Shown one piece after another: positions 2,227 to 30,822 of a stretch of DNA of 64,000 nt. The position numbers were made by a program, and so were the translations under genes. The number at the start of each line of letters is the position of its first letter. The first letter of the stretch is position 1. The stretch covers positions 18,007-82,006 of the forward strand of contig JBATTW010000385.1 of the NCBI GenBank assembly GCA_049670805.1, given 5' to 3'. Below the pieces are notes generated by a model. That model worked only from the letters and a program-made list of their open reading frames with translations. It was not told where the DNA came from and searched no databases. The DNA is from Bacteroidota bacterium. GTDB taxonomy: Bacteria > Bacteroidota > Ignavibacteria > UBA10030 > UBA6906.

Positions 2227-2675
2227 TGTTGTTTCCGTCTGTTGCGAAGATCTTTCGCGAGTTCATGGTCAATACGAAAATACGTCGCCGGTTCTGCGGG
2301 GTGCTGCAGCTGCAGCTCCTTGGCGGCAAATGCACTGATGCGACCGCGGGATGATTTCTTGCTCACTTCAGCGCGCAACACACCGTTTGCATGGGTCAGC
2401 GAGTCATGCCGCACTTCCAACCGGTTGATATCATACGCCAGCCGGTTCACCACGATGATGTTGTTGACGTAGTACACAATGGCAACACCGGCAATAACAA
2501 GAGCGAGCAGGAGACTAAACGTAGACTTTCGTCTTCCGGTGACCTTTTTGTTCGCGCGGGGAAGAAACCCGCCGGTGGCAATGCGTGGGTCACCGCCGTA
2601 CACATACCGGTGTTCCCGGTATGGCTGACGATTCGGTCTGGTCAGCGTTTCCTGGTTCGGCTGTACATCCATCAA
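2223..2675 (-). CDS. ftsL: Cell division protein FtsL
   Basis: 150-aa single-TM coiled-coil protein between rsmH and ftsI. ATGA overlaps with both neighbours. Confidence 0.7.
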   Translation of the reverse strand: MMDVQPNQETLTRPNRQPYREHRYVYGGDPRIATGGFLPRANKKVTGRRKSTFSLLLALVIAGVAIVYYVNNIIVVNRLAYDINRLEVRHDSLTHANGVLRAEVSKKSSRGRISAFAAKELQLQHPAEPATYFRIDHELAKDLRNRRKQQ

Positions 2676-7701: not shown

Positions 7702-8622
7702 CTACGATCGCTTGCGTCCGGCCAGTCTGACAAACCCATCGGCCTCTTCGATGAGGCGCCGGGCTTCGCCGGCCGATACTCCAGCCTGGATCATCACGAG
7801 CGCCGTCTTTACATGCCCTTCGGCTCCCCGCAGATGCTCCTCCGCGGTCGTGTAATCCACACCCGTTGCTAACATGATTATCCTTTTTGCCCGCTCCACA
7901 AGCTTGTTGTTGGTGAGCTGGAGATCCACCATCATGTTCTCATATACCTTCCCCAGTCTGACCATGGCCGTTGTCGTAACCATGTTGAGCACCAGTTTTT
8001 GTGCTGTGCCCGATTTCATTCGGGTCGATCCCATAAGGACCTCCGGGCCAACCTCCGGACAGATGGCCACATCGACCGCCAGATCGAACTCCGATCGCGG
8101 ATTGGTTGTCACATAGATTGTCCGGGCACCCAGCTCACGCGCACGGGCCACCGCGGTAACCACATAGGGTGTTCTCCTGCTTGCCGCGATCCCGCACACC
8201 GTATCTCTTTCACACACCCCTTCTGCATCTACGTCTCTCCGGGCTTGGCTGATATCGTCCTCGGCACCTTCCTGTGAACGAAACATCGCTCTGTTACCCC
8301 CGGCTATCACCCCCCGAACAAGGTTTGCATCTGTTCCAAACGTCGGAGGACATTCCGACGCATCAACCACACCCAGTCTCCCGCTGGTTCCAGCACCAAA
8401 ATAGAGAAGACGTCCACCCCCTCGTAGAGAAGCAACAACCAGATCCACCGCTCTCTCTATATATGGTATCTCTCGCTCTACAGCGATTGGAACGAGCTTG
8501 TCCTGCGAATTGATGAGCCGAAGAATACCCCGGGTGGAGAGAAGATCCAGATCCATCGAGTCGGGGTTTCGTTGTTCTGTCAGCAGTCGGGAGAGAGCGT
8601 CAGAAAGAGATGCCTTGGACAT
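7702..8622 (-). CDS. murQ: N-acetylmuramic acid 6-phosphate etherase MurQ (SIS domain)
   Basis: 306-aa SIS-domain protein with the characteristic MurQ N-terminus (LxTEQRN.S..LD) and GAGTSGRLG motif. Confidence 0.85.
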   Translation of the reverse strand: MSKASLSDALSRLLTEQRNPDSMDLDLLSTRGILRLINSQDKLVPIAVEREIPYIERAVDLVVASLRGGGRLLYFGAGTSGRLGVVDASECPPTFGTDANLVRGVIAGGNRAMFRSQEGAEDDISQARRDVDAEGVCERDTVCGIAASRRTPYVVTAVARARELGARTIYVTTNPRSEFDLAVDVAICPEVGPEVLMGSTRMKSGTAQKLVLNMVTTTAMVRLGKVYENMMVDLQLTNNKLVERAKRIIMLATGVDYTTAEEHLRGAEGHVKTALVMIQAGVSAGEARRLIEEADGFVRLAGRKRS

Positions 8623-8769: not shown

Positions 8770-9495
8770 TCACTCAAACCTGACAACGACCAGCTGTTTC
8801 TTTTCAAAACCGGGCGAGTGACCTCCCTCGATGACAAGAGGGAGAACGTCAATCGTCTCCCGGTGAAACTTTCTGGACGCATGTTCGATTTCATCCTCCA
8901 GATCTCCTCCCTTCCATGCCAGAAGACAGGGTGCATCCAACAGTCTCTTTGGCGCCCGGTCTCTCTGCTCTCCGTTCCTGGTTGGCTCTCCCTCCTGCCT
9001 GCGCAGGAACGGTCTGGACCAGCGAATGAGATCGACCAACGGGGCAACTCCACGTGCCAGTACCGCAGAGAACCGCGACGCGTATTCCCCCTTGGTCCCA
9101 ACGTCTTCAGCTCTGCCATTCAGCACTTGCACGTTCGGTAGCTCTAGCTCGGTACAGATTTCTGTCAGGGCTTTCGTCTTTTTCTGTATCGAATCCAGAA
9201 GCACAATGCTCAGGTCGGTCCGCAGGATGGCCAGGGGAATCCCGGGGAGTCCCCCGCCCGAACCGATATCCAGAATGGCCCAGCCGGAAGGTAGCCAAAC
9301 ATGGAACCAGGGTGCAAGAGAATGGAGGATGTGGCTGAACCAGATGTTCTCAACATCCCGCCGAGAGACAAGGTTGATTTTTGAGTTCCACGTGCTCAGC
9401 AGGTCAACATATTGACGAACCAGCTCGAATTGCCCGGCGTCAACCGGCAGACCGTTCTTCCGGCAGATCCTGAGAAACTCTTGAGGATGGTCCAC
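8770..9495 (-). CDS. rsmG: 16S rRNA (guanine527-N7)-methyltransferase RsmG (GidB)
   Basis: 241 aa with SAM motif DIGSGGGLPG, located downstream of mnmG. Confidence 0.88.
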   Translation of the reverse strand: MDHPQEFLRICRKNGLPVDAGQFELVRQYVDLLSTWNSKINLVSRRDVENIWFSHILHSLAPWFHVWLPSGWAILDIGSGGGLPGIPLAILRTDLSIVLLDSIQKKTKALTEICTELELPNVQVLNGRAEDVGTKGEYASRFSAVLARGVAPLVDLIRWSRPFLRRQEGEPTRNGEQRDRAPKRLLDAPCLLAWKGGDLEDEIEHASRKFHRETIDVLPLVIEGGHSPGFEKKQLVVVRFE

Positions 9496-9520: not shown

Positions 9521-11398
9521 TCAGCGCAGGAGATTAATCATCAAAACGGAGACATCGGAAACCGTTATCCCGCTGATACGCGACGCCTGCCCGATAGACC
9601 TTGGTCGAACCCTCTCCAACTTCTCCCTTCCCTCGTTGCTGATGGAGTTAAGAGAAGAAAAGTCAAAGTCGAGGGGAATTCGTATGTTTTCGTTCTTCTC
9701 AAACTGCCGAACCTGTATCTCCTGTCGTTTCAAGTATCCTTCATACTTTACCTCGATATTCACACGCTCGCTGGCCACGAGATCGTCCCGGAGCGTTATC
9801 AGACGCTTATCATGCTGCGCAGAGGGAAGGTCACAGATGTCATTTATATCAACTTCGGGCCGCTTCAGAAACTGGTAGAGCGATTCACTCTCCCGGATGG
9901 GACTTTCCCCCTTTTCTTCCATCAATTTCCTCACTTCCAAAGGTGAAACACGGTTTTCCCTGAGGAACGCTTTTGCATCATCAATGCGCCGCTCCTTTTG
10001 CTGGAGCCGCGCCAGAACTGAATCCGGTACCAGCCCTTTATCGTGGCCCAACCTCATGAGTCGCGAGTCTGCATTGTCTTGCCGTAGTTTCAGCCTGTAC
10101 TCGGCCCGGGAGGTAAATATCCTGTATGGCTCCTCCGTACTCTTGTTTATTAGGTCATCAATCATAACACCAATGTACGCGTCGCTCCGCCGTAATACGA
10201 ACGGATCACCCCCTCTCACCCTTATGGCGGCATTGATGCCGGCAATCAGGCCCTGTCCCGCCGCCTCCTCGTATCCGCTTGTGCCGTTGATCTGACCGGC
10301 GAAAAAGAGTCCCCTTATCCGCTTCGTCTCCAGCGTGTGCTCCAGCTGGTGGGGGGGGAAAAAATCGTACTCCACCGCATACCCGGGCCTGAGCATTTCT
10401 GCCCGCTCCAGGCCGGGTATGGTGGCAATGGCTCTACGTTGCACGTCTTCGGGCAGACTTGTGGAAAAACCGTTCACGTAGAGAATCTCGGATGCATACC
10501 CCTCTGGCTCCAAGAAGATCTGATGCCTCTCGCGCTCTGCAAACCTGTTGATCTTGTCCTCTATTGATGGACAGTATCTGGGACCTACACCTTTGATCCG
10601 ACCCAGGAACAGCGGCGACCTATCAAAGCCGCTCCTCAGGATCCTGTGTGTCTCAGCTGTTGTATGTGTCAGATACATGGGAATCTGACGATTCAGAATG
10701 CGTTGACTCTGATAGGAAAACGGGCGGGCGGGTTCATCCGGCAACTGTTCTTCCGTCAGGCTGAAATCAACTGAGGCAATCCGCAGCCTGGGCGGCGTAC
10801 CTGTTTTCAGCCTTCCGGTGGCAAAACCGAGCTGAGCAAACCGTTCCGTCAGCCCCGACGACGCCGGCTCCCCGTATCTGCCACCCACCAAGACCAGTTC
10901 CCCCGTGTGCATGACCGCATTCAGGAACGTCCCACCGCATAGAACCAAGCACTTGCACCCGATCCTCTCTCCACCCGTTGTCATGATCCCTGCGACCGAC
11001 CCATTCTCAACAATGATATCGCTCAGGCTTTCCTGGATGATGGTTAGGTTTTCTTGGGTCTTAACTCTTCGCTTCGCTTCTCTACTGTACCACTCCCTAT
11101 CACTCTGACACCGGGGCGACCAGACGGCCGGCCCCTTCGATCTGTTCAGCAATCTGAAGTGGATACCTGTTGAATCGGCCAGCTTCCCCATTTCACCCCC
11201 CAGTGCGTCTATCTCCCTCACCAGATGCCCCTTGGCTGTCCCACCAATAGCAGGATTGCAGGACATGCGACCGATTGCCTCAATATCCATGGTAATGAGG
11301 CCAGTCGCACACCCCATCCTCGCCCCAGCTAGAGACGCCTCGATGCCGGCGTGTCCACCACCCACAACAAGGATATCAAATCGTTGCTTTTCTCTCAC
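9521..11398 (-). CDS. mnmG: tRNA uridine-5-carboxymethylaminomethyl modification enzyme MnmG (GidA)
   Basis: 625 aa with FAD-binding N-terminus ([16 protein letters not shown]), in the mnmE-mnmG-rsmG syntenic block. Confidence 0.93.
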
Positions 11399-11427: not shown

Positions 11428-12831
11428 CTATTTGCCAATGCAAAACCTGCCGAAAATGCTGTTCAAGATCTCCTCGTTGGTTACCTCACCGGTGATCTCT
11501 GAGAGCACCTCAATAGCCTCTCTGACATCAAAAGCGACGAATTCATTGGTTGCCCCAGCATTCACGGAATTCATTGCTGTCTCCAGACTACTCCTGGACC
11601 TATCGATAGCATCCTTGTGCCGCCGGTTTGTAAGGTAGAACCCTCCCTCTCCCGCATCCGGGCTTCCCACAAGCAGCAATACCAGTGCTTCTTTCATCCG
11701 CTCAACCCCTTCACCCGTTTTTGCTGAAATCCATACTTCCAGGCCCACGTTCTCTCCTATCCTGAACTGTCGGGGGCCCCTCGCTTTCCCAGGGAGCAAA
11801 TCAATCTTGTTGTGCGCTACAAGACAAACTTGCCCCTTTCTCAACTTGCCTACCTGGGCCAGCACATCCTCCCTCTCCTCCCCTGCGGTTGCGTCAGCTA
11901 CAACAATGAGAAGATGACTCCTCTTCACCACAGTCCGACTCCTCTCGACCCCCTCTGCTTCGACAACATCTTCGGACTTGCTCAGCCCTGCCGTGTCTGT
12001 CAAGCGAAAGAGGATTCCTGACAGAGTTATGCTCTCCTCAAGAGAATCGCGCGTCGTGCCGGGAATAGGGGTAACAATTGCTCTGTCAGACTTGAGAAGC
12101 AGATTGAAAAGGCTTGATTTGCCAACATTGGGTTTTCCCACAATTGCGGCCGGGACCCCTTCCCGGAAATGTCTCCCAACATCAAAAGAGCCTGCCATTT
12201 CCGACAATAATCGGATTACGCGAACCACCTCTTCTTTGATCCGCTCCCGGCTGATTACCTCGATCCCCTCTTCAGCGAAGTCAAGGTCAATTTCCAGCAG
12301 AGAACAGAGGTCGAGCAACGATGAACGCATCCTCTTCACGTGGGCCGCCAACCTCCCATCCAGCTGCTCGATGGAGGAGAGATGTGCTCTCCGGCTGCGT
12401 GCAGCAATGAGGTCAGCAACAGCCTCTGCCTGCGAGAGGTCAATTTTTCCGTTCAAAAATGCTCTTTTCGTGAATTCGCCCGGTTCTGCTTGGCGCGCGC
12501 CCGATTCCAGGAGGAGCTCAAGTACCTTGTGTGTGACCAGAATTCCCCCATGACAGGAAAACTCCACTGAATCTTCACCTGTGTAGGAACGAGGTGAGCG
12601 GAAAACAGTTGCAACAGCCTCATCCATGTGAGCGCCCCCGGCGTCGCAAATCCAGCCATGTTGTGCAGTGTATCCTTCGGTCTCGCAGAGGGGAGTGCCT
12701 CCAGTGAACACCCTGTCGGCAATCTGAAGAGCGGCGGGACCGCTGATGCGAACAACCGAGAGGGCTCCCTCTCCTATCGGCGTCGCAATTGCGGCAATCG
12801 TGTCCTCGCGGTGAAGCTCCATGGGGAACAC
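11428..12831 (-). CDS. mnmE: tRNA modification GTPase MnmE (TrmE)
   Basis: 467 aa with TrmE N-terminal domain, G-domain (GKPNVGKSSL), and a C-terminal C(I)GK motif. Confidence 0.92.
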   Translation of the reverse strand: MFPMELHREDTIAAIATPIGEGALSVVRISGPAALQIADRVFTGGTPLCETEGYTAQHGWICDAGGAHMDEAVATVFRSPRSYTGEDSVEFSCHGGILVTHKVLELLLESGARQAEPGEFTKRAFLNGKIDLSQAEAVADLIAARSRRAHLSSIEQLDGRLAAHVKRMRSSLLDLCSLLEIDLDFAEEGIEVISRERIKEEVVRVIRLLSEMAGSFDVGRHFREGVPAAIVGKPNVGKSSLFNLLLKSDRAIVTPIPGTTRDSLEESITLSGILFRLTDTAGLSKSEDVVEAEGVERSRTVVKRSHLLIVVADATAGEEREDVLAQVGKLRKGQVCLVAHNKIDLLPGKARGPRQFRIGENVGLEVWISAKTGEGVERMKEALVLLLVGSPDAGEGGFYLTNRRHKDAIDRSRSSLETAMNSVNAGATNEFVAFDVREAIEVLSEITGEVTNEEILNSIFGRFCIGK

Positions 12832-12936: not shown

Positions 12937-14742
12937 CTATCGAATCTTCGGGAGGTCTTTTGTAATCTTTCCCATAAACCCACCGCTCTTTTTCTTCCGA
13001 TCGACTTTCCGCAGCGGCTCATCTCCGTGACTCTTTTTCAGCCACATCTGCTGCACGATAGAGAGCAGGTTGAAGACGAAGTAGTAGAGATTAAGCCCGG
13101 ATGGAAGGCTATTGAATATCAGTGTCAGCATGATCGGCATAAGCCACACCATTGCTTTCTGTCGCGGATCTGTAACGGTCATCTTCTGTTGGACAAACAT
13201 CGTCGCCCCCATTGCCAGAGCGACGCCGCTTATCTCGGATATCCCGACAACAGGGATTTCAAAGGGAAGGGTAAAAACTACGTCCGGCACCGAGAGATCA
13301 TCAATCCACAACGCAAAGCTCGCCTGGCGCAGCTCTATGGAAGACCGGAGAACGGACCAGAGAGCAAAGAGGATGGGCATCTGCAATAACAGAGGTAAAC
13401 AGCCGGCGGCTGGATTGACCCCGTACTCCTTGTAGAGATTCATGATCTGCTGATTCATCTTCTCCGGGTTGTCTTTCTGCTTCTCCCGGATCTCGGCCAT
13501 CATTGGCTGAAGCGCTTGCATTCGACGCATGGACTTCATGCTGGTCTTGCTCAGCGGATGAAGAACTATCTTGATAATGAACGAAAAGACGATGATTACC
13601 ACCCCGTAATTCGGTATCAGCATCTTCAAGAACGAGAAGAGCGGAATCATGACGTATTCCGCAATCGGCCTGATGACCCAGGCTGCCCCCAGATTCATCA
13701 TCTCCTCAAGCCCCTTTTCGTAGGACTTCACAATGTCATAATCGAGGGGGCCCAGATAGACGGTTATGCCGGCTGATTCCCGACCCACCCCCTTGAACGG
13801 CATTTTCAAGGCAAGCAGGTAGCCCTCTTTTACACCCTTATTCGGAAGTTGTGTCCGGGCCCCTTCAACATACGCTCCCTGGGGTAGGCCGTCCCGGCCC
13901 AGAAGCGCAACCGTAAAATACTTGTTCCGCGTTGCCACCCATGCTGTCGATCCTGTGATGTCTCGACTTTCGACCTCCCCGATGCTCGACGCGTCAACCT
14001 CGGTAATCTCTCCTCCCGAGTATGCATATCCCATAGCGTAGTTGGATTCATCGACGCTGTTTCGTTCCGCATAGCGCACACCATGTTCCCAGACCACCTG
14101 AAACTCATAGTTGGTGATGACGTCGCCCAAGTTGACGAACTCCCAGTCGACATCAAAGGAGTAGCTCCCATTTGTAAACGTCATCCTCTTGATCAACCGC
14201 CTTCTCTCGTCAATCCGCAGCTCTAGCTCAACGATCAATTGGTCATCACCCCACAACTCGCGCCTCTCCCAGGGTGCAAATGCACCCTCGAAATAGAGTT
14301 CTCGCGTGTTGACCAGCTTCCCGTCGCTGGAGGTGAACAGCAGGCTGAGCTCGCCTCCGCTATCATACTCGATCAGCTGTACCGGGTACTTGTCCCAGGT
14401 CTTGAAATTCTCAAGCTCCCATTTTCTCAGAAGACCACCCCTCGTCGTGATCTCGGCAGTATACAGATCCGTCTTCACAACGAGAACTTTCTCCGCTCCG
14501 CTCTGCAGGTGCGTGAAAAAACGGCCAAGCGAGTCGGGTTGACTCGCCGCCGGAAGTGCAGATACGATCGGCTCCCTCTCAACTTCTGCCCTTTCAGCCG
14601 TGTCACTTGCCCGTCTGTCAGATTGCTCCAGTGTGTCTGCGCCGGCAGTCTGTTTTTCCTCCGGCGGCGGCGCCTGAACCCACATCCAGACGATCAGCAC
14701 CAGGCCGATGAGTATGAAACCAAATGTTGTTTGCTTATCCAT
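12937..14742 (-). CDS. yidC: Membrane protein insertase YidC (long periplasmic domain form)
   Basis: 601 aa with N-terminal TM, a large periplasmic domain and a C-terminal 5-TM 60-kDa-IMP core. Follows yidD. Confidence 0.9.
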   Translation of the reverse strand: MDKQTTFGFILIGLVLIVWMWVQAPPPEEKQTAGADTLEQSDRRASDTAERAEVEREPIVSALPAASQPDSLGRFFTHLQSGAEKVLVVKTDLYTAEITTRGGLLRKWELENFKTWDKYPVQLIEYDSGGELSLLFTSSDGKLVNTRELYFEGAFAPWERRELWGDDQLIVELELRIDERRRLIKRMTFTNGSYSFDVDWEFVNLGDVITNYEFQVVWEHGVRYAERNSVDESNYAMGYAYSGGEITEVDASSIGEVESRDITGSTAWVATRNKYFTVALLGRDGLPQGAYVEGARTQLPNKGVKEGYLLALKMPFKGVGRESAGITVYLGPLDYDIVKSYEKGLEEMMNLGAAWVIRPIAEYVMIPLFSFLKMLIPNYGVVIIVFSFIIKIVLHPLSKTSMKSMRRMQALQPMMAEIREKQKDNPEKMNQQIMNLYKEYGVNPAAGCLPLLLQMPILFALWSVLRSSIELRQASFALWIDDLSVPDVVFTLPFEIPVVGISEISGVALAMGATMFVQQKMTVTDPRQKAMVWLMPIMLTLIFNSLPSGLNLYYFVFNLLSIVQQMWLKKSHGDEPLRKVDRKKKSGGFMGKITKDLPKIR

Positions 14743-14770: not shown

Positions 14771-14980
14771 TCACGCAGGATCGTAGCCGCCCGGATGGAA
14801 CGGGTGGCACCGGCCCACCCGCCTAGCAGCGCGCCACATTCCCTTCCACGGCCCATACTTTCTAACGGCATCGACAGCGTATGTCGAACAACTGGGATAG
14901 AATCTGCAGGTGTTTGGAGGGAAGATAGGAGATACGAGAATCTGATACGCCCGCAGGAAAACCAGAACAACCGATTTCAT
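14771..14980 (-). CDS. yidD: Membrane protein insertion efficiency factor YidD
   Basis: 69 aa with conserved CRF.PSCS.Y motif, between rnpA and yidC. Confidence 0.85.
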   Translation of the reverse strand: MKSVVLVFLRAYQILVSPIFPPNTCRFYPSCSTYAVDAVRKYGPWKGMWRAARRVGRCHPFHPGGYDPA

Positions 14981-14990
14981 GATGTGCCTA

Positions 14991-15359
14991 TTACAGCTTT
15001 CGTGAAACGGCCAGGCAGACCTCCGCTATATCGGTACGCACCGGACCTAGCCCGAGCCGTCGTACATCCACCGTGGTAGCCGGTCTGAATATAAAAAGGA
15101 GGGAAGCAGATAGCTCCGACCGCTGCAGTCTGTCGGCGAGAATCCCCTGCTCCCACATAAAGGCCTCCCGCATTAACCTCTTCACCCGATTCCGCTGTAC
15201 GGCATTCAGTTTCCTTCGCGGAACCACGAAGCCGGCCCGCACACGGGAGCCGGACTCAACAAGAGCGTAACACCTCACCAACCGTCCGTCAAAACGGCGC
15301 CCCCCTCGGAACACCTTCTCGAAAGCCGTCCGGCCTCGGAGTGTCTGCTCTCTCTTCAA
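14991..15359 (-). CDS. rnpA: Ribonuclease P protein component RnpA
   Basis: 122-aa basic protein with the RNR motif region, immediately after rpmH. Confidence 0.85.
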   Translation of the reverse strand: MKREQTLRGRTAFEKVFRGGRRFDGRLVRCYALVESGSRVRAGFVVPRRKLNAVQRNRVKRLMREAFMWEQGILADRLQRSELSASLLFIFRPATTVDVRRLGLGPVRTDIAEVCLAVSRKL

Positions 15360-15506
15360 CTACCGTTCATCACTTACGCTGAGTTTATGGCGTCCCCTTG
15401 CCCGTCTCCGTGCAAGGACCCTTCGGCCACTCTTTGTTGACATCCGTTCCCGGAAGCCGTGTGTGTTTTTCCTCTTCCGCTTGTGGGGCTGGTATGTTCG
15501 CTTCAT
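15360..15506 (-). CDS. rpmH: 50S ribosomal protein L34
   Basis: Internal start of track ORF 15360..15650 gives [48 protein letters not shown] (48 aa), the canonical L34 sequence. ATG is at 15506. Confidence 0.9.
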
Positions 15507-15883
15507 TGACCCGGGCCTCCTCTCGATACATTTTGCCCTGCCCCGAAAGACCGCGAAAAAAAGAGGGTTGCCCCATCGGGGACAATCCTCGGCGTATGCG
15601 ATCCTCAGGTAGGAGGGCGAACAAAAATCTACAAAAAATGCGCCACACATTCAACTCCGGGTTAAGAATCCGGCGCTACTTTCTGCTTGCGCGGGCCCCC
15701 GCCAGGTGTTATACTTCAGCTACCGCAGAAAGCCAAATGTGGTGTTGATAACATGTGAAGAGGTGTCTTCTTCTCGAACGATCTCTTGTTGGAAGGTACT
15801 TCCCAGGCTTGGCGCTTCTGTTGACAACTGCCTCCGAAGACATCAACTTCTTCTGAATCAAGCAGTTATGGCGACCAACATCT

Positions 15884-15977
15884 TGTGGATAACTGTTGAT
15901 CATGCTGACAGCGGTTTTGCTGATATTCATCGCCATGTGCATATCCTCGTGAATAACCCACTTTCGGGTGTTGATAA
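15884..15977. promoter_or_regulatory. Upstream DnaA-box cluster in the rpmH-dnaA intergenic region (dnaA promoter / left half of bipartite oriC)
   Basis: Perfect TGTGGATAA (rc TTATCCACA) at about 15884-15892, TGTTGATAA (one mismatch) at about 15969-15977, and weaker CGTGAATAA at about 15948-15956. Confidence 0.6.
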
Positions 15978-16000
15978 CTCCCGTATTGGTTGATATAACT

Positions 16001-17473
16001 ATGGATACACCCCTTCACTCAACACAAGAGCAGACCGAAACACAGGAAGCTGGGGATGCCTGGGCTGCGTCCCTGGAACTGATCCGCGAACGTGTCAATA
16101 CCCAAAGCTTCAAAACGTGGTTTGAGCCTATCGTGCCGCTCCACCTCCGAGGCGGAACTCTGACCGTCCAGGTACCAAGTCAGTTCTTCTACGACTGGCT
16201 CGAGGAGCATTACTACAATATCATTACCTCTACGATCAACAAGGTCCTCGGTAATGATGCGAAACTCGAGTACTCTCTCCGCAAAGAGGAGCCGGCCGTT
16301 GATCTGGAATACCACGTGTCTCAACCTGCACCGGTCAGGCGGGACCAGCCGTACTACTCGCCCCACCTGAATTCCATCAGCATCCCAACGCGCACCGCAC
16401 AGCCGTCTCGGAGACGCGATATTTATACGAGCGCCTTCCAGAGCTACCTCAACCCCCGGTACACGTTTGACACCTTTATCAAGGGAGATAGCAATCAACT
16501 CGCAAGAGCCGCTGCATCGGCGGTTGCCAACAACCCGGGAGGGACCTCCTTCAACCCGCTGGTAATCTACGGCGGCACCGGTCTGGGAAAAACTCATCTT
16601 ATTCAGGCCATCGGAAATTCGGCTCTGGCGCACAGGAAGGCTCAGCGGGTAATGTACGTCTCCAGCGAGAAGTTCACGGTCGAGTTCGTAGATGCCATCC
16701 AGAGCGACCGCATATCCGACTTTTCGAACTTCTACCGAAGCATGGACATTCTCATTGTGGATGATATCCAGTTCTTTTCCGGAAAGGAGAAGACGCAGGA
16801 CAACTTCTTCCATACCTTCAACGAGCTACATCAAATCGGAAAACAAATCGTGTTATCGTCCGATAGACCCCCAAAGGAGCTCAAGGGTCTCGACGATCGC
16901 CTCCTCTCCAGATTCCAGTGGGGTTTGACTGCAGATATTCAGCTCCCCGACCTGGAGACCCGCATCGCCATTCTGAAGGCAAAGAGTGAAGCAGACGGAA
17001 TCGATCTTCCACAGGACGTTATTGAGTGTATTGCGGCCAATGTGACATCCAATGTTCGGGAGCTCGAGGGATGCCTTATCGGTCTTCTGGCAAAAGCGTC
17101 GCTCGAGGGTCGGGACATTTCCGTTGATCTGGCGCGCGAGGTTCTGAAAGTCGTTGTGGGTGATGTACGTTCCCCACTTACCATAGAGACCATCCAGCAG
17201 ACGGTATGCGAGTATTTCAACCTCCCCGAGGACCTGATCCGGGCAAAAACAAGGAAGCAGGAAGTCGTAAACGCCCGCCAGATCGCCATGTATCTTGCCA
17301 AAGAACTCACCAATTGTTCGCTAAAAACCATTGGCCTCCATTTTGGCGGGAGGGATCATAGCACGGTCATCCATGCATATCAGTCGGTTGAAGATCAGAT
17401 GCGTCTTGACTCTAAGTTCCAGGGTAACGTCCAGCAGATTCAACGAAGACTGCAGATGCTGAGTCACGTTTAG
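16001..17473 (+). CDS. dnaA: Chromosomal replication initiator protein DnaA
   Basis: AAA+ Walker A GGTGLGKTHL, conserved N-terminus (SFKTWFEPI), C-terminal DnaA-box binding domain. ATG at 16001 preferred over the track's GTG at 15968. Confidence 0.93.
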   Translation: MDTPLHSTQEQTETQEAGDAWAASLELIRERVNTQSFKTWFEPIVPLHLRGGTLTVQVPSQFFYDWLEEHYYNIITSTINKVLGNDAKLEYSLRKEEPAVDLEYHVSQPAPVRRDQPYYSPHLNSISIPTRTAQPSRRRDIYTSAFQSYLNPRYTFDTFIKGDSNQLARAAASAVANNPGGTSFNPLVIYGGTGLGKTHLIQAIGNSALAHRKAQRVMYVSSEKFTVEFVDAIQSDRISDFSNFYRSMDILIVDDIQFFSGKEKTQDNFFHTFNELHQIGKQIVLSSDRPPKELKGLDDRLLSRFQWGLTADIQLPDLETRIAILKAKSEADGIDLPQDVIECIAANVTSNVRELEGCLIGLLAKASLEGRDISVDLAREVLKVVVGDVRSPLTIETIQQTVCEYFNLPEDLIRAKTRKQEVVNARQIAMYLAKELTNCSLKTIGLHFGGRDHSTVIHAYQSVEDQMRLDSKFQGNVQQIQRRLQMLSHV

Positions 17474-17984
17474 CACTTCAGCAATACAATCTTTGTTCCA
17501 CAACCTTTCAACTCTCCCAGCAGTTCTACCACTACGTAGTGTCCCGATATTCCGCTGCTTCGCGCGTATGCATTCCTGTGTACTATTCTCTGTTGCACAC
17601 TAGCTTCTGATACATTGTGGAAAGGAGTGGGGAAAGTCTGTGAGTTCATGTTACCTGCCTGTGAATAGAGTCCCTCTTGCAGGGTTCCCCATGAATGGTT
17701 GCTGGAGTGTGTGGGCAGTTCATGCAGTTATCCACCCGGTTCACCCTGAGAAATTATGTAATACAAATACTACCCACTATTAGCCACTCAATAACTTAGC
17801 AACAAGATCTACCCGTTATCCACAATTCCACACTATTATTACTAATCTCTTTACTACATAAGAGAACTTATTGTATTAATAGCAGCCCCACGCTCGGTGG
17901 ATTATTTCACAAAAATTTGGTAAATTAGTAAGGTTTTGAAGCTCTTTCTGAAACGCTGCAGCCATCTCACTAGAGGAGATAGCC
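17474..17984. other. oriC core between dnaA and dnaN: DnaA boxes plus an AT-rich DNA unwinding element
   Basis: TTATCCACC at about 17728-17736, perfect TTATCCACA at about 17816-17824, GGTGGATTA at about 17896-17904, and several 2-mismatch boxes at 17500-17640. A markedly AT-rich stretch at about 17750-17880 sits in an otherwise ~60% GC genome. No credible ORF. Confidence 0.7.
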
Positions 17985-19100
17985 ATGAAATTTGCCGCCG
18001 GTAGCACCGATCTCCAGCGTACACTAAGTAAACTCAGCGGGGTGCTTCCCTCTAGGTCGACAATGCCAATCCTCGAGAATATCCTCTTTGATCTTACCGG
18101 CAACAACCTCACAATGACTGCCACGGATCTTTCTCTCACGCTTACGGTTGGAATGGAGGTTCAGGGGATAGAGGACGGAAAAGTAGCAGTTCCTGCAAAA
18201 AGACTCGTGGATACCATACGTTCGCTTCCGGACATAAATGCAACCTTTTCCGTTGATTCCGGCGCTGACAGGGTGATGATCAGTACTTCCAACGGCGAAT
18301 ATACGCTCGTTGGAGAAAGTGCGAAGGATTATCCCCAGGTTCCTCCGTTTCAGGCGGCTGGGTCATTGGAGTTTGAGACGGACGTACTGAGAGGTATAAT
18401 ATACCGAACGGTCTTTGCTGTGAGTAGCGATGAACTACGTCCCGCAATGATGGGAGTACTCTTCCAGTCTTATGAGGGAGCACTACGAGTTGTTTCCACG
18501 GACGGCCACCGGTTGGTACGGCTGGTATACCAAGGTGTGGATCTTACCGCGCTGAAGAAAGACATCATCATCCCAGCAAAGGCCCTTTCGGTTCTTGCGC
18601 GCTCCACCGATGGGAGGAAGATAGACTGTAGTTTTAGCACCACTCATGCTCGCTTTGAATTCGAGAACTCTGTTCTTGTGACGCGCTTGATCGATGAAAC
18701 CTACCCAAATTACGAGAGCGTGATTCCCGCCGAAAACGACAAGACGCTTCGGATAGATCGAGAACAACTTATTGGAGCTATTCGACGCGTCGCTCTTTAC
18801 GCAAGTGCTGCCACACACCAGGTTAGGCTGACTGTCAGTCCGGCCTCTCTCGTTATTACGGCACAAGATGTTGACTTTGGCGGAGAGGCAAAAGAGAATG
18901 TGTCCTGTGAATACTCGGCAGAGGAAATGGACATCGGGTTCAATTCGGTCTACCTGACGGACATCCTTTCACACCTCGAGGGCAGCGAAGTTCAGATCAA
19001 GTTCAGCTCACCGACGCGGGCTGCAATCGTTGCACCGGTGGAAGGTGCCGGCGAAGAAGATGTTCTGATGCTTGTTATGCCTGTGCGGCTAAATACGTGA
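17985..19100 (+). CDS. dnaN: DNA polymerase III beta sliding clamp DnaN
   Basis: 371 aa with three-domain clamp and MKF...LQRTLS N-terminus. A strong SD (AGGAGA) precedes the ATG. Confidence 0.92.
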   Translation: MKFAAGSTDLQRTLSKLSGVLPSRSTMPILENILFDLTGNNLTMTATDLSLTLTVGMEVQGIEDGKVAVPAKRLVDTIRSLPDINATFSVDSGADRVMISTSNGEYTLVGESAKDYPQVPPFQAAGSLEFETDVLRGIIYRTVFAVSSDELRPAMMGVLFQSYEGALRVVSTDGHRLVRLVYQGVDLTALKKDIIIPAKALSVLARSTDGRKIDCSFSTTHARFEFENSVLVTRLIDETYPNYESVIPAENDKTLRIDREQLIGAIRRVALYASAATHQVRLTVSPASLVITAQDVDFGGEAKENVSCEYSAEEMDIGFNSVYLTDILSHLEGSEVQIKFSSPTRAAIVAPVEGAGEEDVLMLVMPVRLNT

Positions 19101-19178: not shown

Positions 19179-20301
19179 ATGGTAGTCACGGAGCTGAGAC
19201 TGAAAAACTTTCGGAACCACGTTATGACACGGCTGGAATTCGGTGAAGGTGTCAACGCGCTGGTTGGGGGTAACGGTCAGGGCAAGACAAACGTTCTGGA
19301 AGCGTTATCGTATCTTAGTTTGACGAAGAGCTTCTTTGCCGCAAACGATGCGACCGTTATACAGATCGGGAAAGAATCCTTTGAAGTTGATGGAACCATA
19401 CAGGACACGACGGGCTCCAATCATGAGGTTATGGTGAGCTACTCACGGACGAGCCGTGAGAAGGTCGTACGGGTTGACCGGAGCAAACCAGAGACGCTTG
19501 CATCGGTTGTGGGAAAGTTTCCCGTTGTTATTCTGTCGCCGGATCATGGCTCTATTTCTGCGGGAGGACCGTCGGAACGCAGAAAGTTCATGGACATTCT
19601 GCTTTCTCAGACGAGCCGATCGTACCTGGAAGATCTGCTGGAGTACCGGAGGGCGCTGCGGCAGAAGAACCGACTTCTCATGCGGGCAAAGATGGAAGGC
19701 GTCCGTCCAGGCGCGTCGCTCGAACCGTGGAGTATCAGTCTGGCAAGGCACGGAGGGAGGATCATGCGGCGCAGGCGGGATTTTGCGAAGGAATTTCAGC
19801 CGTTTGTGAGGCGTGCATATACCGCACTTGCTGAAGAGAAAGAACAACCGGAAGTGACGTATGTACCGACGGTGGCTGTTTCTCCAGACGCGCCATCGGG
19901 CGAAATTGAGAGGGTCCTGGCACAGCGTATGGAGGCGTCCCGTAGGGAGGAGGAACGGCGGGGATTGAGTCTGACAGGACCTCACCGGGATGAGTTGAAA
20001 TTGTGTATTGACAGCAGGAGGGTGCAAGAGTATGCATCGCAGGGGCAACACAAGACGCTTCTGGTTGCTCTCAAGGTTGCAGAATTCTGGTTTATGAAGG
20101 AGCGGATTACAGAAACACCGGCACTTCTGCTTGATGACGTCTTTGGCGAGCTGGATCCACAGCGTTCACGTAGAATGCTCAGCCTCGTGCCGGAAATGGG
20201 GCAGACTGTTGTGACGACGACCGACGAACGATTCTTCGAAAATGCGGTGCAGTGGAACGGTCGGAACAAGAGATACTTTGTGGAAAAGGGAGTCTGTCGC
20301 A

Positions 20302-20309
<8 letters not shown>
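19179..20309 (+). CDS. recF: DNA replication and repair protein RecF
   Basis: 376 aa with Walker A GGNGQGKTN and SMC-like signature, downstream of dnaN. Confidence 0.9.
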
Positions 20310-22675
<2,366 letters not shown>

Positions 22676-22701: not shown

Positions 22702-25392
22702 ATGGCGAGCATAAACGAGAAGATCGTTCCGGTAGACATCGAAGACGAAATGCGAGGATCGTACATCGATTACTCGATGTCGGTCATTGTGGCACGGGCC
22801 CTCCCCGATGTCCGTGATGGGCTGAAGCCCGTACATCGACGTGTGCTCTACGGCATGCAGGGGCTCGGGCTTGCTGCCGGCCGGGCGTACAAGAAATCGG
22901 CACGCATTGTAGGCGAGGTACTCGGCAAGTATCATCCGCACGGAGATACGGCCGTGTACGATACGATGGTGCGTATGGCGCAGGATTTTTCGATGCGCTA
23001 TCCGCTGGTGGATGGTCAGGGGAATTTCGGGTCTGTGGACGGTGATTCTCCCGCGGCCATGCGGTACACAGAGGCTCGACTTTCCCGGCTCGCTGAAGAG
23101 ATGTTGAGGGATCTGCAGAAAGGCACCGTGGATTTTACGCCGAATTTCGATGAGACGCTTGCAGAGCCCTCGGTTCTTCCGGCCCTGGTCCCCAACCTGC
23201 TGGTCAATGGCGCAAGCGGGATCGCGGTGGGGATGGCGACGAACATTCCACCCCACAATCTCACCGAAGTGATCGACGGGTGTGTCGCGTTTATCAAGAA
23301 TCCGGAGATCACCACCGAAAAGTTGATGAAGCATGTTACCGCACCTGATTTCCCCACGGGGGGAATCATTTACGGGTACGAAGGCGTTCGGGAGGCCTAC
23401 AAGACAGGGCGGGGCCGTGTTGTGGTACGCGCGCGGGCGACTATCGAGACCGGAAAGAATGATCGACAGCGCATCATCATTTCGGAAATCCCGTACCAGG
23501 TCAACAAAGCAAACCTGATTGAGAAGATTGCAGACCTCGTCAACGACAAGAAACTGGAAGACATTTCCGACATACGTGATGAATCTGACCGCGACGGTCT
23601 CAGGGCGGTCATCGAGCTGAAACGAGACGCGAACGCCAGCGTCGTGCTGAACAATCTCTACAAACACACCCAGATGCAGGTAACATTCGGTGTGAACATG
23701 CTTGCCCTCGTGGACGGGCGTCCGAAGGTGCTTACCCTGAAGGAAATGACTCAGCGCTTTGTAGAGCATCGGAACGAAGTGGTCGTTCGGCGTTCCAGAT
23801 ACGAGCTGGAAGAAGCGGAGAAACGAGCGCATATCCTCGAGGGATACATCATCGCACTCGATAATATTGATGCGATTGTCAGGCTCATCAAGAAATCGAG
23901 GGACGTTGAGACCGCAAAAATCGGTCTCATGAAGAGGTTCAAACTGTCGGAGATCCAGGCGAAGGCTATTCTTGATATGCGGCTTCAGAGGCTGACCGGC
24001 TTGGAGCGCAAGAAGATCGAACACGAATACCGTGAAACGATAAAGCTCATAGAACGGCTAAAAGCGATTTTGAAGAGCAAGCAACTCCAGATGGAGATCA
24101 TAAAGGAGGAGTTGCTCGACATCAAAACGAAATACGGGGACGACCGCCGGACGGAGATCGTGTACAAAGCGGAGGAGTTCAGTATCGAGGACATGATCGC
24201 CGAAGAGCAGGTGGTTGTGACCATAAGCCATAACGGGTTCATCAAACGGTTCCCCGTGAGTGGGTACAGACGTCAGTCGCGTGGTGGACGGGGTAGCACG
24301 GGGGCAGCGACGCGGTCGGATGATTTCATCGAGCATGTGTTCGTGGCAAGTTCACATGACTACCTTCTGCTCTTTGCCAACAAAGGACGATGTTACTGGC
24401 TCAAGGTTTTTGAGATTCCGGAGGCAGGGAGAACGTCCCGAGGGAAGTCGATCGCGCATCTGATTGCGAAGCGCCCCGACGAGCTTCTTGCGTCTTTTGT
24501 ACCAGTGAAGAATTTCGAGGATCCCCTCTTTATCCTGATGATGACAGAGAGGGGTATTATCAAGAAGACATCGCTGGGAGAGTTCAGCAACCCCAGAAAA
24601 GCAGGGATCACGGCAATCGGGCTGGGGACGCACGACCGCCTCATTGACGTGCGGGTCACGGACGGCAGTCAGGATGTGGTCTTAGGAACCCGCGAAGGCC
24701 TGGCCGTCCGGTTCGATGAGAGCGAGGTTCGATCGATGGGTCGGACGGCAGCCGGCGTGCGCGCGATGAAGCTCGGTCGATCCGACAAGGTAGTTGGGGC
24801 CGTCGCACTCCGTCGCAGCGGAACAAGTATCCTCGTGGTGACAGAGAGGGGTTTTGGGAAGAGGAGTGAGACCGACGAGTACAGAGTCAGCCACAGGGGT
24901 GGAAAGGGGATTATCACCGTCCGTACGACCGACAAGACCGGGAAGATGGTCGCCATCAAAGAAGTTGTGGATGGTGACGACGTTGTCATTGTGACCAGCG
25001 GGGGGAAGGCCATCCGGCACCATGTGTCGGAAATCAGAGTTGCCGGGAGGAACACGCAAGGCGTCCACCTGATCAGACTGAGTGGCGATGATTTGGTGGC
25101 GGATGTGGCAGCCGTAGTGTCAGAGGAACGGGAAGTACCCGCCGTCAAAGCGGACGAGGGGGAAGGAGAAGGTCTGGACAGCCGGCCAGCAGCTGCGACG
25201 GATGAGATCGGGAAACAGAAAACGGTGCATTGGCCTGCAGATCAGAAGGCAACCCGGGGAGAGCAAAAGTCTTCCAGAGAAACAGGCCGAAAAGACCTGG
25301 TTGCCGTGAAGAAGCGGCGTGGCCGTACTCAGCAGACCCGGCGCTCCAGGACAGCCCGTCCTCCGGCAAAGAAGCGAGGTAGAAGGAAGTGA
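22702..25392 (+). CDS. gyrA: DNA gyrase subunit A with a ~90-aa disordered C-terminal tail that is acidic then strongly basic
   Basis: 896 aa with catalytic Tyr region ([10 protein letters not shown]), GyrA-box beta-pinwheel CTD, then a tail ending [27 protein letters not shown]. Confidence 0.95.
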
Positions 25393-25410
25393 GAGTAACG
25401 GGGGGAGAGC

Positions 25411-27579
25411 TTACAGCATCCCGCTTCTCTTTCTGAGGAACCATTCGAGGGAGAGAAATACGAGGAGCAGGGCAAGCGTGTAGTGCCAGTTCCACAGCGC
25501 CAGCGATCGAACGCTCGTCTCTTTCCGCGGTGTGAACGCAGGCAACTCCAGCAGGGCAGGAGCCAGGCTGTCGATTTCGGCCGGGGCGATGTAACCGCCC
25601 CCGGTGACATGTGCAAGCTCCCTCAGGAGCTGCCTGTTCGCAGGTGTTTCCAGAAATTCTAGGTTCGTTTCTCCCACAGTGAATCTACCAGAATCCTCTC
25701 CCACCACAATCCCGTCGACCTCTGCCGAAGCGTTGTAGGAGTAGTCCCCCTGGGCGAGGCTTCTGAGCTCACCATCATACCTGCCGTTTCCCATCGGTTT
25801 GAGATCCGCTTCTCGAACGTCATCCTCACGTTCAACCGCCACGGTGATGTGCGCTCGATCTACCGGGTGTGACGTGGCGTCGTACACCTGTGCGAAAAAA
25901 GCAACCGATTCTCCTTCGTGAAAGAACGGCTTGGCGGGCTTAACTCTTACCTGTCGGCTCTCTTCACGGGATGAAAGCCACTGAATGGAGGAGGTGAGGA
26001 AGCGAGAGAGAAACGGGACAGTTTGTGGATTTCCCTGTCCCATTAATCTCCAGCGCCAGATTCCGTGGCCAAGAATGGCAAGCGACTTTTGCCCACCGAC
26101 GGCGCGGACGAGCAGAAAGGGACCGATGCCGCCCGAACTTGTGCGGCTGTGTCCGAGGACAACGGTTCCCGATTTTGTCCGGTATGTCGTCACTGTGGCA
26201 AAGAGCGGTGGGAGCTTCCCCCAGGTACCGAAACCATCGGGGGAGCCGAAAGAGAGAAGATAGTGTGATCGGTGTGCATCGGCAGGTTGGAAGTACACAA
26301 GCCGTTCTACCGAGGAGGAGACCTCAACTGTGAAAGGGATGGAGCTCGAAATCGATGCAAGTCGGCCGTAGTCAATGTGGGGGCTGCCAACGAAGAGGAT
26401 GGGTGAAGAATTCCGTTGCAGCGCTTTGTTGAGTCTATCCACGGTGGCATGTGGTGTTGATGGGGTGGGGAACCCCACAAAGACGTAGCAGTCTGCCGAG
26501 TCGATAAGCGATAACCCCAGCGCGCCTTCGTACCACCCCGACGGTTGTCGTTGGGTGAAAGAACGGACGCTGAGGTTCTGATCTTCTGTGAGGGTTTGCC
26601 GGATCGCGGAAAGATCCGGTGAGGGCATACCGGCGATAACCAGAACCCGAACTTTGGTTCGCAGGACCTTTGTGTAAAAGTCTTGCGCATTATTCTTCCC
26701 CGTCAACTCGCCCCGTAGGCGGGAAACGGAGACACGGTACTTCTGGGTCCCTTCGCTCTCTGGGGTGTAAGAAAGACGCACGTCGTAGTTGCGCGTTCCC
26801 TCACCGAAAGTAACGAGCTTGCGATCTAAGAGCTTGCCGTCCTTCTGGAGCGATACCTCAACACGGTGGTTGAGAAATCCCGAGCTTCGGAGGGTGACAT
26901 CAACAGGTGTCGGTTTTCCCGCGTATACCAGCTCGTTTGCCGCTACCCTGGAGACGAGGATATCACGTTGTTCAACGGTGTCTCCGATTCCAACGGCGAA
27001 TATCGGGAGGGCAAGGCGCTCCGCGGCGTGAACGGGATTTTTGCCTACCGTGAAGATACCGTCAGTCAGCAGGAGGGCAGCCTGCAGCTTATCACGGTCT
27101 TTCCTGAGCATGTTCAGTGCAAGCGCGATGTCCGTTCCCTTCTCGTCGAGTGCGAGAGTATCGTTTCCTGTCGGCCCATTCGGGAGGAGGGTCGTACCAA
27201 AAGTGTAGTAACGAAGTTCGACATCGTCGGTGAGACGCTCCAACGCATCCGACTGAAGCACCCCCCGCAGGATATCGGCGCGGGGTTGACCCGGATCATC
27301 GATCTGCATGCTTTCGCTGTTGTCAATCAGGACGGCGAGCGCAGGGGGATTTGTGGTGGACGAGATGATCCTCAGGAGCGGCTCGAACAGGAGGAGGGCC
27401 ATCAGGCAAAGGGACCCCGCACGAAGCAGAGAGAGGACGATGCGCTTTCTGCGCGTCACCGGAGGTACAGTATATCGGTAGAAGAGGATGGCCAGGAGAC
27501 ACCCGATGAGCACCAGCAGGATCAGAATCAGCGCAGGGCCGCCAAATATGATTTCGAAGTGGGGCATGGGCTCAATCAC
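25411..27579 (-). CDS. Membrane-anchored von Willebrand factor A domain protein (BatA-N-like two-TM N-terminus, MIDAS DNSES), MoxR-associated
   Basis: 722 aa with N-terminal two TM helices flanking RRKR, vWA with DxSxS (VLIDNSESM), and a long C-terminal region. Directly downstream of the MoxR ATPase. Confidence 0.6.
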   Translation of the reverse strand: MIEPMPHFEIIFGGPALILILLVLIGCLLAILFYRYTVPPVTRRKRIVLSLLRAGSLCLMALLLFEPLLRIISSTTNPPALAVLIDNSESMQIDDPGQPRADILRGVLQSDALERLTDDVELRYYTFGTTLLPNGPTGNDTLALDEKGTDIALALNMLRKDRDKLQAALLLTDGIFTVGKNPVHAAERLALPIFAVGIGDTVEQRDILVSRVAANELVYAGKPTPVDVTLRSSGFLNHRVEVSLQKDGKLLDRKLVTFGEGTRNYDVRLSYTPESEGTQKYRVSVSRLRGELTGKNNAQDFYTKVLRTKVRVLVIAGMPSPDLSAIRQTLTEDQNLSVRSFTQRQPSGWYEGALGLSLIDSADCYVFVGFPTPSTPHATVDRLNKALQRNSSPILFVGSPHIDYGRLASISSSIPFTVEVSSSVERLVYFQPADAHRSHYLLSFGSPDGFGTWGKLPPLFATVTTYRTKSGTVVLGHSRTSSGGIGPFLLVRAVGGQKSLAILGHGIWRWRLMGQGNPQTVPFLSRFLTSSIQWLSSREESRQVRVKPAKPFFHEGESVAFFAQVYDATSHPVDRAHITVAVEREDDVREADLKPMGNGRYDGELRSLAQGDYSYNASAEVDGIVVGEDSGRFTVGETNLEFLETPANRQLLRELAHVTGGGYIAPAEIDSLAPALLELPAFTPRKETSVRSLALWNWHYTLALLLVFLSLEWFLRKRSGML

Positions 27580-27612
27580 CGGGGAGAAAGGTGTACGGTA
27601 GACGTGCCGGGA

Positions 27613-28635: not shown

Positions 28636-28663
28636 GCGTACGCCCCCTACCCCCTTTCCTTGG

Positions 28664-30821: not shown

Positions 30822-30822
30822 T

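Follow-up and report, generated by a model that had tools for sequence, protein, structure and literature searches.

The stretch examined here, a 64-kb window (64,000 nucleotides, the whole of the DNA that was analysed) of contig JBATTW010000385.1 from an uncultured Ignavibacteria-like bacterium, contains the initiator gene dnaA, with the divergently oriented rpmH to its left and dnaN, read in the same direction as dnaA, to its right. The gaps on either side of dnaA are long and carry clusters of DnaA boxes, and the one next to dnaN carries in addition a run of DnaA-trios and an AT-rich stretch. The setting of rpmH, dnaA, dnaN, recF and the gyr genes is the classical ancestral origin neighbourhood (PMC4285127). 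A bipartite origin is defined as two clusters of DnaA boxes split by a spacer gene, which is usually dnaA (PMC4285127), and the same layout has been described elsewhere (PMC7561715). The region is very probably the chromosomal origin of replication (oriC) of this organism, with the split architecture of the B. subtilis and C. difficile origins.

Genes were mapped from a reading of positions 15300-18300, from tables of open reading frames (ORFs) and from NCBIfam and Pfam scans. Three of them frame the locus:

15360-15506, minus strand: rpmH, which encodes ribosomal protein L34 and bounds the region on the left (TIGR01030, 77 bits), with its ATG at 15504-15506; conserved in relatives.
16001-17473, plus strand: dnaA (TIGR00362, 544 bits), encoding the initiator and separating the two subregions as their spacer gene.
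17985-19100, plus strand: dnaN, the right boundary gene (TIGR00663, 273 bits).

The dnaA-dnaN spacer occupies 17474-17984 and is exactly the 511 bp given in the original prediction, which had proposed a two-part origin at this position from the sequence alone. The rpmH-dnaA spacer had been put at about 460 bp, a figure that holds to an in-frame GTG at 15968 (461 bp) and not to the dnaA ATG at 16001 (494 bp). Box scans of the window delimit the upstream cluster within this spacer:

15743-15996, all boxes on the minus strand: upstream DnaA-box cluster (proposed oriC subregion 1).
15743-15751, minus strand: box TTATCAACA.
15819-15827, minus strand: box TTGTCAACA.
15884-15892, minus strand: perfect box TTATCCACA, which reads TGTGGATAA on the plus strand.
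15894-15902, minus strand: box TGATCAACA.
15936-15944, minus strand: box ATATGCACA.
15948-15956, minus strand: box TTATTCACG.
15969-15977, minus strand: box TTATCAACA, with one mismatch.
15988-15996, minus strand: box ATATCAACC.

All ten sites with at most two mismatches in the rpmH-dnaA spacer lie on the minus strand, and the cluster is both the highest 500-bp window and the highest bin for box score in the 64 kb. Only two perfect copies of TTATCCACA exist in the window, one on each side of dnaA: 15884-15892 (minus strand) and 17816-17824 (plus strand). Sites with at most one mismatch to TTATCCACA number 20 in the window against 8.4 +/- 3.0 in dinucleotide shuffles, none of which reached 20. 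Boxes were also scored by the consensus of the lineage, TTATC[C/A]ACA, or by a weight matrix built from relatives only, and compared across the 17 gaps between genes in the window that measure 80 bp or more. The matrix scan, which the original prediction had proposed as a check, gave seven hits in the rpmH-dnaA spacer, where about 0.6 are expected, and three in the dnaA-dnaN spacer (summed scores 94 and 37), against a total of two, both at threshold, in the remaining 15 gaps (3,040 bp). The cluster of DnaA boxes expected of an oriC thus stands above background in the window, as it does in related genomes.

Relatives were collected by a DnaA-protein scan of one genome per species, which yielded 80 loci of 7.4 kb each. 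They come from uncultured metagenome-assembled genomes (MAGs) labelled Ignavibacteria, Ignavibacteriota, Bacteroidota or ‘Chlorobi’, and their DnaA proteins are 60-79% identical to that of the window, so the window’s own species is not among the representatives. The order of rpmH, divergent from dnaA, followed by dnaN and recF is kept in nearly all of the 80 loci together with both long spacers, which measure approximately 400-650 bp upstream and 350-650 bp downstream of dnaA. Perfect boxes occur at 1.81 per kb upstream, 0.17 per kb downstream and 0.022 per kb elsewhere, enrichments of about 80-fold and 8-fold respectively; one-mismatch boxes, at 5.3, 2.7 and 0.29 per kb, are 18-fold enriched. 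Unsupervised counting of 9-mers in the upstream spacers of the relatives, undertaken without a prior motif, returned TTATCAACA (53 of 76 spacers) and TTATCCACA (43 of 76) as the most widely shared words, each more than 120-fold enriched over flanking coding DNA; hence the consensus TTATC[C/A]ACA.

The arrangement of the boxes is conserved as well as their number. Upstream of dnaA, 345 boxes in the relatives are on the minus strand and 36 on the plus strand, and the spacing of co-oriented neighbours has two peaks, with 109 cases measuring 11-12 bp and 52 cases 21-22 bp. Downstream of dnaA, 126 are on the plus strand and 52 on the minus strand; forward pairs of the form TTATCAACA-TATCCACA have starts 8-9 bp apart (42 cases), and among the reverse-oriented hits 22 of 25 spacings are multiples of 11 bp. 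In an alignment of downstream spacers the blocks follow the order of distal weak array, box at 17728, proximal pair, trios, unwinding element, dnaN promoter-like block and Shine-Dalgarno sequence. The corresponding order upstream, towards rpmH, is boxes, the blocks GTATAACAC and GCAAG, a promoter-like TTGAAT-N17-TAGATT, and a hairpin with a T-run.

The elements predicted to act in unwinding lie in the dnaA-dnaN spacer of the window as follows:

17616-17668, minus strand: distal array of weak box-like repeats headed TGTG and spaced about 11 bp apart, a conserved block in the downstream-spacer alignment; its members, all on the minus strand, are TGTGGAAAG (17616), GTGGGGAA (17627), TGTGAGTTC (17639) and TGTGAATAG (17660).
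17728-17736, plus strand: DnaA box TTATCCACC, the position being kept as TTATnCACA in the alignment.
17796-17804, plus strand: forward box TTAGCAACA.
17816-17832, plus strand: proximal tandem box pair of the unwinding module, comprising the perfect TTATCCACA (17816-17824) and the degenerate AATTCCACA (17824-17832).
17833-17847, minus strand: DnaA-trios, reading CTA TTA TTA CTA ATC on the plus strand and 3'-GAT AAT AAT GAT TAG-5' on the minus strand.
17832-17881, no strand: core of the predicted DNA unwinding element (DUE), the least stable duplex of the window.

The basal unwinding system (BUS) is searched for by a box with at most two mismatches, an optional second box with at most four, a spacer of 0-16 bp and at least three NAN trios (PMC8287927), and the consensus of the DnaA-trio is 3'-GAT-5', with a central A (PMC8287927, PMC10721633). 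In the window the first box, facing the trios, is the perfect TTATCCACA at 17816-17824 on the plus strand. The perfect box is directly followed by ATTCCACA, which together with the preceding A makes up the co-oriented second box AATTCCACA, with three mismatches; it is the counterpart of TATCCACA or TATGCACA in relatives, where the pairs are clear. Eight bp separate the perfect box from the first trio, and the five consecutive trios that follow have a central A, four of the five being 3'-[G/A]AT-5'.

The same module recurs in the lineage, with the consensus TTATCAACA-TATCCACA-N3-4-TTA TTA CTA CTC TTA. A box with three or more [C/T]TA trios after it is present on the plus strand of 24 of 72 dnaA-dnaN spacers (0.5 of 72 in shuffles), on the minus strand of none of the 72, and on neither strand of the 77 upstream spacers. 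When two trios suffice, 39 dnaA-dnaN spacers have the motif on the plus strand and three on the minus strand, against 5.3 in shuffles. For the window, too, a second module of this kind on the upstream side of dnaA was rejected, no trios following the leftmost box at 15743.

Duplex stability was profiled in silico by nearest-neighbour free energy, used in place of a calculation of stress-induced duplex destabilization. The 50-mer at 17832-17881 is the least stable in the 64 kb (z = 5.3), and the same locus is the least stable at 30, 100 and 150 bp (z = 4.3 to 5.3). This check had been proposed for 17750-17880, where an AT-rich stretch in a background of about 60% GC had been noted; the stretch is indeed there, with a GC content of 0.33-0.39 in 100-bp windows over 17750-17999, although the background of the window is nearer 0.55. 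The AT-rich zone around the core spans approximately 17750-17950. An AT-rich predicted DUE (GC 0.33) therefore adjoins the boxes, and in every related locus the GC minimum likewise falls in the dnaA-dnaN spacer, 135-365 bp before dnaN.

Two further observations concern this spacer. At the right edge of the DUE a two-mismatch reverse box, TAATCCACC (17896-17904, minus strand), is followed after a 10-nt spacer by CTG CTA TTA ATA, such that in the window box-plus-trio-like motifs face inward from both sides of the DUE. This mirrored module was nevertheless rejected, being absent from the minus strand of all 72 dnaA-dnaN spacers of the relatives and overlapping the putative dnaN -35 element, which fits the conserved columns better. 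At the left end, the first ~125 bp past the dnaA stop (17474-17600) are without counterpart in most of the aligned relatives, whose spacers are 350-400 bp; among the 11 aligned, only one (L007) carries extra sequence here. No box with at most one mismatch and no conserved ORF was found in 17474-17600.

The cumulative G-C curve of the window has its minimum at 18145, within dnaN and adjoining the predicted unwinding element; the original prediction had expected it at about 17.6 kb. Mean skew is -0.119 to the left of rpmH and +0.139 over dnaN to gyrA, and stays positive (+0.046) over a block of minus-strand genes at 25393-36260. Since it is positive across genes of the opposite strand, the skew reflects replication and not only an effect of the transcribed strand. 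To the right, G exceeds C on the plus strand, a polarity that belongs to an origin rather than a terminus. Within the window, therefore, the switch between leading and lagging strands coincides locally with the skew minimum. The strand bias of the genes was said to flip exactly at the origin: genes are on the minus strand through ftsI on the left and on the plus strand through gyrA on the right, as described, but the flip of the genes sits at the rpmH/dnaA boundary (15.5-16.0 kb) and that of the skew at about 18.1 kb.

The DnaA protein of the window matches TIGR00362 over its full length and aligns with E = 2e-124 to 8BTG, the B. subtilis DnaA of a cryo-EM complex of the unwinding system (PMC10721633). 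It keeps the Walker A motif, the equivalents of K222 and E223, and the domain IV motif GGRDHSTVIHA, in agreement with a predicted recognition of canonical boxes. Among the residues that contact the trios in B. subtilis, E183 and I193 are kept and I190 is conservatively replaced by V. We take this V to be equivalent to V211 of E. coli. Four other contacts to the bases of the trios differ (N187V, N196D, R202S and E228N). None of the trio-contact residues is universally conserved (PMC10721633), and the changed contacts thus need not argue against the mechanism. It may be, speculatively, that they are tied to a preference of the lineage for 3'-AAT-5' trios.

These features suggest a sequence of events at the origin. 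DnaA would occupy the strong boxes, of the form TTATC[C/A]ACA. The forward pair at 17816-17832 would then anchor an oligomer of ATP-DnaA, which would grow rightward onto the trios at 17833-17847 (minus strand, 3'-GAT/AAT-5'), and stretch and open the AT-rich DNA at 17832-17881; the helicase would be loaded there and forks would depart bidirectionally. The distal weak boxes, with their phasing of about 11 bp, and the upstream cluster at 15743-15996 probably concentrate DnaA locally at the module, with dnaA looped out, while the upstream cluster would simultaneously place the divergent dnaA and rpmH promoters under the control of DnaA. In model systems, distal and upstream boxes have such a helper role, exerted through local DnaA concentration or looping (PMC6669920).

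An origin with its predicted point of unwinding beside dnaN is well supported by these data. As for its two parts, boxes are clustered on both sides of dnaA, at 15743-15996 and 17616-17832, and the candidate DUE and the trios are confined to the dnaA-dnaN spacer, that is, to one subregion, an arrangement that favours the two-part origin of the original prediction (PMC4285127, PMC7561715). The boxes it had named were all found: the perfect reverse box near 15884-15892, the one-mismatch box near 15969-15977, and those near 17728 and 17816, both on the plus strand. It had missed the minus-strand boxes at 15743, 15819, 15894, 15936, 15948 and 15988, and the trios. The outcomes that were to count against it, a skew minimum elsewhere and no enrichment of boxes over other intergenic DNA, were not encountered in the window. 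A bipartite origin in the full sense would also have both subregions bound by DnaA and needed for initiation, with dnaA looped out. That the upstream boxes are strongly conserved across the lineage, share one orientation and are helically phased would lend this indirect support.

Several points weigh against this reading. Unwinding, DnaA binding and fork initiation are deduced from the sequence and from model systems. In this genome the members of the distal phased array are weak, only two having two mismatches or fewer in the window, and so is the second proximal box, which has three mismatches and overlaps the first by one base. The skew minimum is local to 64 kb, a replicon-wide minimum lying outside this view, and the DnaA departs from that of B. 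subtilis at the four trio-base contacts given above. Finally, the upstream cluster might be part of the replicator or an operator only, for the divergent dnaA and rpmH promoters, and the sequence is compatible with both.

This last point leads to the strongest alternative, which has an appreciable though smaller chance of being correct: that a continuous origin is confined to the dnaA-dnaN spacer, the upstream cluster being a transcriptional operator for dnaA autoregulation and rpmH control that is dispensable for initiation. The dnaA-dnaN spacer contains all that unwinding needs, namely boxes, trios and DUE; upstream of dnaA there is neither a trio module nor a strong AT-rich minimum. The leftmost upstream boxes, moreover, adjoin conserved promoter-like blocks that read towards rpmH. 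Autoregulation of DnaA through boxes upstream of dnaA is common, and in Melioribacter roseus the origin was placed only in the dnaA-dnaN spacer (PMC3534657). On the other hand, no box array of the locus is denser or better conserved than the upstream cluster, which has roughly tenfold the density of perfect boxes found downstream (1.81 against 0.17 per kb), and its strict co-orientation and 11-12 and 21-22 bp phasing are typical of regions of DnaA oligomerisation rather than of a simple operator. The equivalent cluster is needed in vivo, or for melting in vitro, in B. subtilis, H. pylori and C. difficile (PMC6669920, PMC7561715). The operator and initiation roles are, in any case, not mutually exclusive. 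In B. subtilis the upstream cluster combines the two.

A second alternative, which appears very improbable, is that the locus is not an origin at all but a DnaA-regulated dnaA-dnaN operon, with the true oriC elsewhere on the replicon as in E. coli. The window covers 64 kb and a deeper skew minimum might exist beyond it, and in some bacteria oriC has moved away from dnaA (PMC4285127). The skew nevertheless changes sign here, with the polarity of an origin and independently of gene strand; the least stable duplex of the window comes directly after a perfect box and trios; and the position and strand of the module are conserved across the lineage. An E. coli-type oriC beside mnmG was not found in the window, where mnmG lies 4.5 kb to the left, has tiny flanking gaps and adjoins no box cluster. 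A small group of boxes at 36241-36314, described below, was examined for trios and for an AT-rich element comparable to that beside dnaN, and has neither.

The idea that boxes and AT-rich stretch co-occur by chance in ordinary long intergenic DNA, one-mismatch 9-base motifs arising about eight times per 64 kb, is already refuted by the shuffles, none of which attained the observed count, by the nearly box-free state of the other intergenic gaps, and by the 80 related loci, with their 80-fold (perfect) and 18-fold (one-mismatch) enrichment, their conserved orientation and spacing, and their trio module.

Bipartite origins and the unwinding system are already well described (PMC4285127, PMC6669920, PMC8287927, PMC7561715), and the split origin proposed here resembles the known examples in different respects. 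That of B. subtilis, with incA/B upstream of dnaA and incC between dnaA and dnaN, has the same frame of rpmH, divergent dnaA and dnaN, with boxes in both spacers. Unwinding is likewise confined to the dnaA-dnaN spacer, and the order is the same, running from distal boxes through a proximal pair in one orientation, the first of the two being a consensus box, to trios, AT-rich element and dnaN (PMC6669920). The host here is, however, a Bacteroidota/Ignavibacteria-like bacterium and not a Firmicute. Its lineage favours TTATCAACA alongside TTATCCACA; the starts of the proximal pair are 8-9 bp apart, so that the boxes abut or overlap by one base; the trios are mostly 3'-AAT-5' and not 3'-GAT-5'; and the DnaA is without N187, R202 and E228. 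It has been considered, although as a doubtful proposition, that these differences add up to a variant of the BUS used by the lineage, in which an abutting box pair is combined with A-rich 3'-AAT-5' trios read by a DnaA without N187, R202 and E228, and with box arrays that face strictly away from dnaA (345:36 in favour of the minus strand upstream, 126:52 in favour of the plus strand downstream).

In C. difficile the same two-spacer layout is found, with oriC1 between rpmH and dnaA and oriC2 between dnaA and dnaN (PMC7561715). Its oriC2 has a top-strand trio run, 5'-CACCTACTACTATTACTACTATGA-3' (5'-...CTACTACTATTACTACTA...), just upstream of the experimentally melted DUE, in the same strand and order as here, while its oriC1 has more boxes and no trio (PMC7561715), as does the upstream spacer of the window. 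The evidence in C. difficile is from P1 nuclease in an AT-rich genome; here it is from sequence in a genome of 55% GC, in which the DUE consequently stands out more. The oriC1 and oriC2 of H. pylori are also two clusters split by dnaA, with the DUE in the downstream subregion and a BUS (PMC8287927, PMC4285127). The genes that flank them differ from those here. Binding of H. pylori DnaA to oriC2 is sensitive to DNA topology.

E. coli oriC is a single locus away from dnaA and is subject to GATC/SeqA control. This continuous origin, between gidA and mioC, shares with the present locus the logic by which the DUE-proximal box R1 is oriented to the DUE, as well as phased boxes of low affinity, which support oligomers of DnaA (PMC10325909). 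The closest published lineage is that of Melioribacter roseus, of the Ignavibacteria group, whose origin was assigned by GC skew and putative DnaA boxes to a 303-bp dnaA-dnaN spacer, the only one named (PMC3534657); in the window, clusters occupy both spacers and a trio module is present. That in silico assignment is the one prior statement on an origin in the Ignavibacteria group that was found in the literature (PMC3534657). What appears to be new is that the perfect box at 17816, the degenerate second box, the five trios and the AT-rich stretch together correspond to the BUS as known from B. subtilis and C. difficile, sharing both its orientation and its place between dnaA and dnaN. Specific to the lineage are its preference for TTATCAACA, a box pair that abuts, trios rich in A and a strictly divergent box orientation. 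The locus would not surprise a specialist, and is a clean but ordinary example.

Transcription signals of the two spacers were proposed from conserved columns in the alignments, as follows:

15626-15654, minus strand: putative rpmH promoter, with -35 TTGAAT (15649-15654), a 17-nt spacer and -10 TAGATT (15626-15631), proposed from conservation of the block TTGtat-N17-TAgaTT in the alignment of upstream spacers.
15556-15590, minus strand: conserved hairpin at 15563-15590 and, after it, a T7 run at 15556-15562, a terminator-like hit in the presumed rpmH leader.
17898-17926, plus strand: putative dnaN promoter, with -35 TGGATT (17898-17903), a 17-nt spacer and -10 TAAATT (17921-17926).
17973-17978, plus strand: Shine-Dalgarno sequence AGGAGA for dnaN.

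The columns behind the dnaN promoter are T..G..T.T, then GTAAATTT, then AGGAGA, in the downstream-spacer alignment. A generic scan for sigma-70 promoters and terminators gave counts no better than those of shuffles and did not call the proposed rpmH and dnaN promoters, which rest on conservation only. Two short blocks on the minus strand, GTATAACAC at 15707-15715 (ATTATAACAC in relatives) and an invariant GCAAG at 15686-15690, are conserved in the interval that separates the leftmost DnaA boxes from the putative rpmH promoter; they could be a second promoter or the site of a regulator.

The hairpin, which ends 49 nt ahead of the rpmH ATG, bounds the origin on the left and is outside the origin proper. 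An element of the form GAGGATTGyC...GrCAACCCTC-T(5-9) was found in 18 further related loci among the 77 spacers searched (e.g. L001, L005, L008, L027, L046 and L076), 30-70 nt upstream of the rpmH start and downstream of the TTGtat-N17-TAgaTT block. The consensus fold of 16 copies has ten pairs, three of them with compensatory changes, and a conserved A.C mismatch, and the hairpin matches no Rfam family. With its T run it looks like an intrinsic terminator or attenuator within the rpmH-rnpA leader; as a secondary possibility, it would be an attenuator of the rpmH-rnpA operon, so far undescribed and sited where the origin ends.

The remaining genes around the locus are:

55-2226, minus strand: FtsI-type penicillin-binding protein.
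2672-3628, minus strand: rsmH.
4259-7606, minus strand: mfd.
7702-8622, minus strand: SIS-domain protein.
8770-9495, minus strand: rsmG.
9521-11398, minus strand: mnmG.
11428-12831, minus strand: mnmE.
12937-14742, minus strand: yidC.
14771-14980, minus strand: yidD, kept in 75 relatives.
14991-15359, minus strand: rnpA.
19179-20309, plus strand: recF.
20636-22675, plus strand: gyrB.
22702-25392, plus strand: gyrA.

To the right of gyrA minus-strand genes resume, from 25411 to 36260. This 11-kb block lies on the rightward replichore, so its genes would be head-on with replication. It is opened, directly after gyrA, by an ORF of 722 aa (25411-27579, minus strand) whose protein has no Pfam match at E<=0.001.

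A search for translated matches of spacer ORFs among the 80 related loci found none inside either spacer, in line with the original claim that the dnaA-dnaN spacer holds no credible ORF. Candidate hidden genes at 15709-15942 (minus), 15706-15993 (plus), 15866-16018 (minus), 17470-17649 (minus) and 17640-17783 (plus) were rejected on this ground, and the ORFs near the spacers that did match are opposite-strand mirrors of rpmH, dnaA or dnaN coding sequence. An Rfam scan of the window returned nothing at the gathering score, and no tRNA or tmRNA was found in it. A permissive Rfam scan matched AsdA (‘antisense RNA of dnaA mRNA’) at 16568-16645 on the minus strand with 31.7 bits, against a gathering score of 52 (E = 6e-4); as the match is antisense to the segment coding for the Walker A motif of dnaA, it most likely reflects conservation of the coding sequence rather than an RNA gene.

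The third, small box cluster of the window (36241-36314) lies 18.5 kb from the origin, in the gap between divergent NFACT/RqcH-like (minus strand) and yicC-like (plus strand) genes. It consists of TTATCAACA at 36241 and a tandem of two TTTTCCACA copies 11 bp apart (36295-36303 and 36306-36314, minus strand), and its 500-bp box score is tied for second-best in the window. The cluster might serve to titrate DnaA or be a promoter that DnaA regulates.

For this uncultured lineage, the analysis fixes the origin and the likely point of unwinding, at about 17.83-17.88 kb of the window, which is of use in assigning replichores, in circularising and orienting MAGs, in estimating growth rates from peak-to-trough coverage and in annotation. 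It also extends the split origin with a box-plus-trio module to an Ignavibacteria-like branch of the Bacteroidota/Chlorobi group. Such an extension leaves the prevailing view unchanged, and is in keeping with the arrangement being ancient and widespread.

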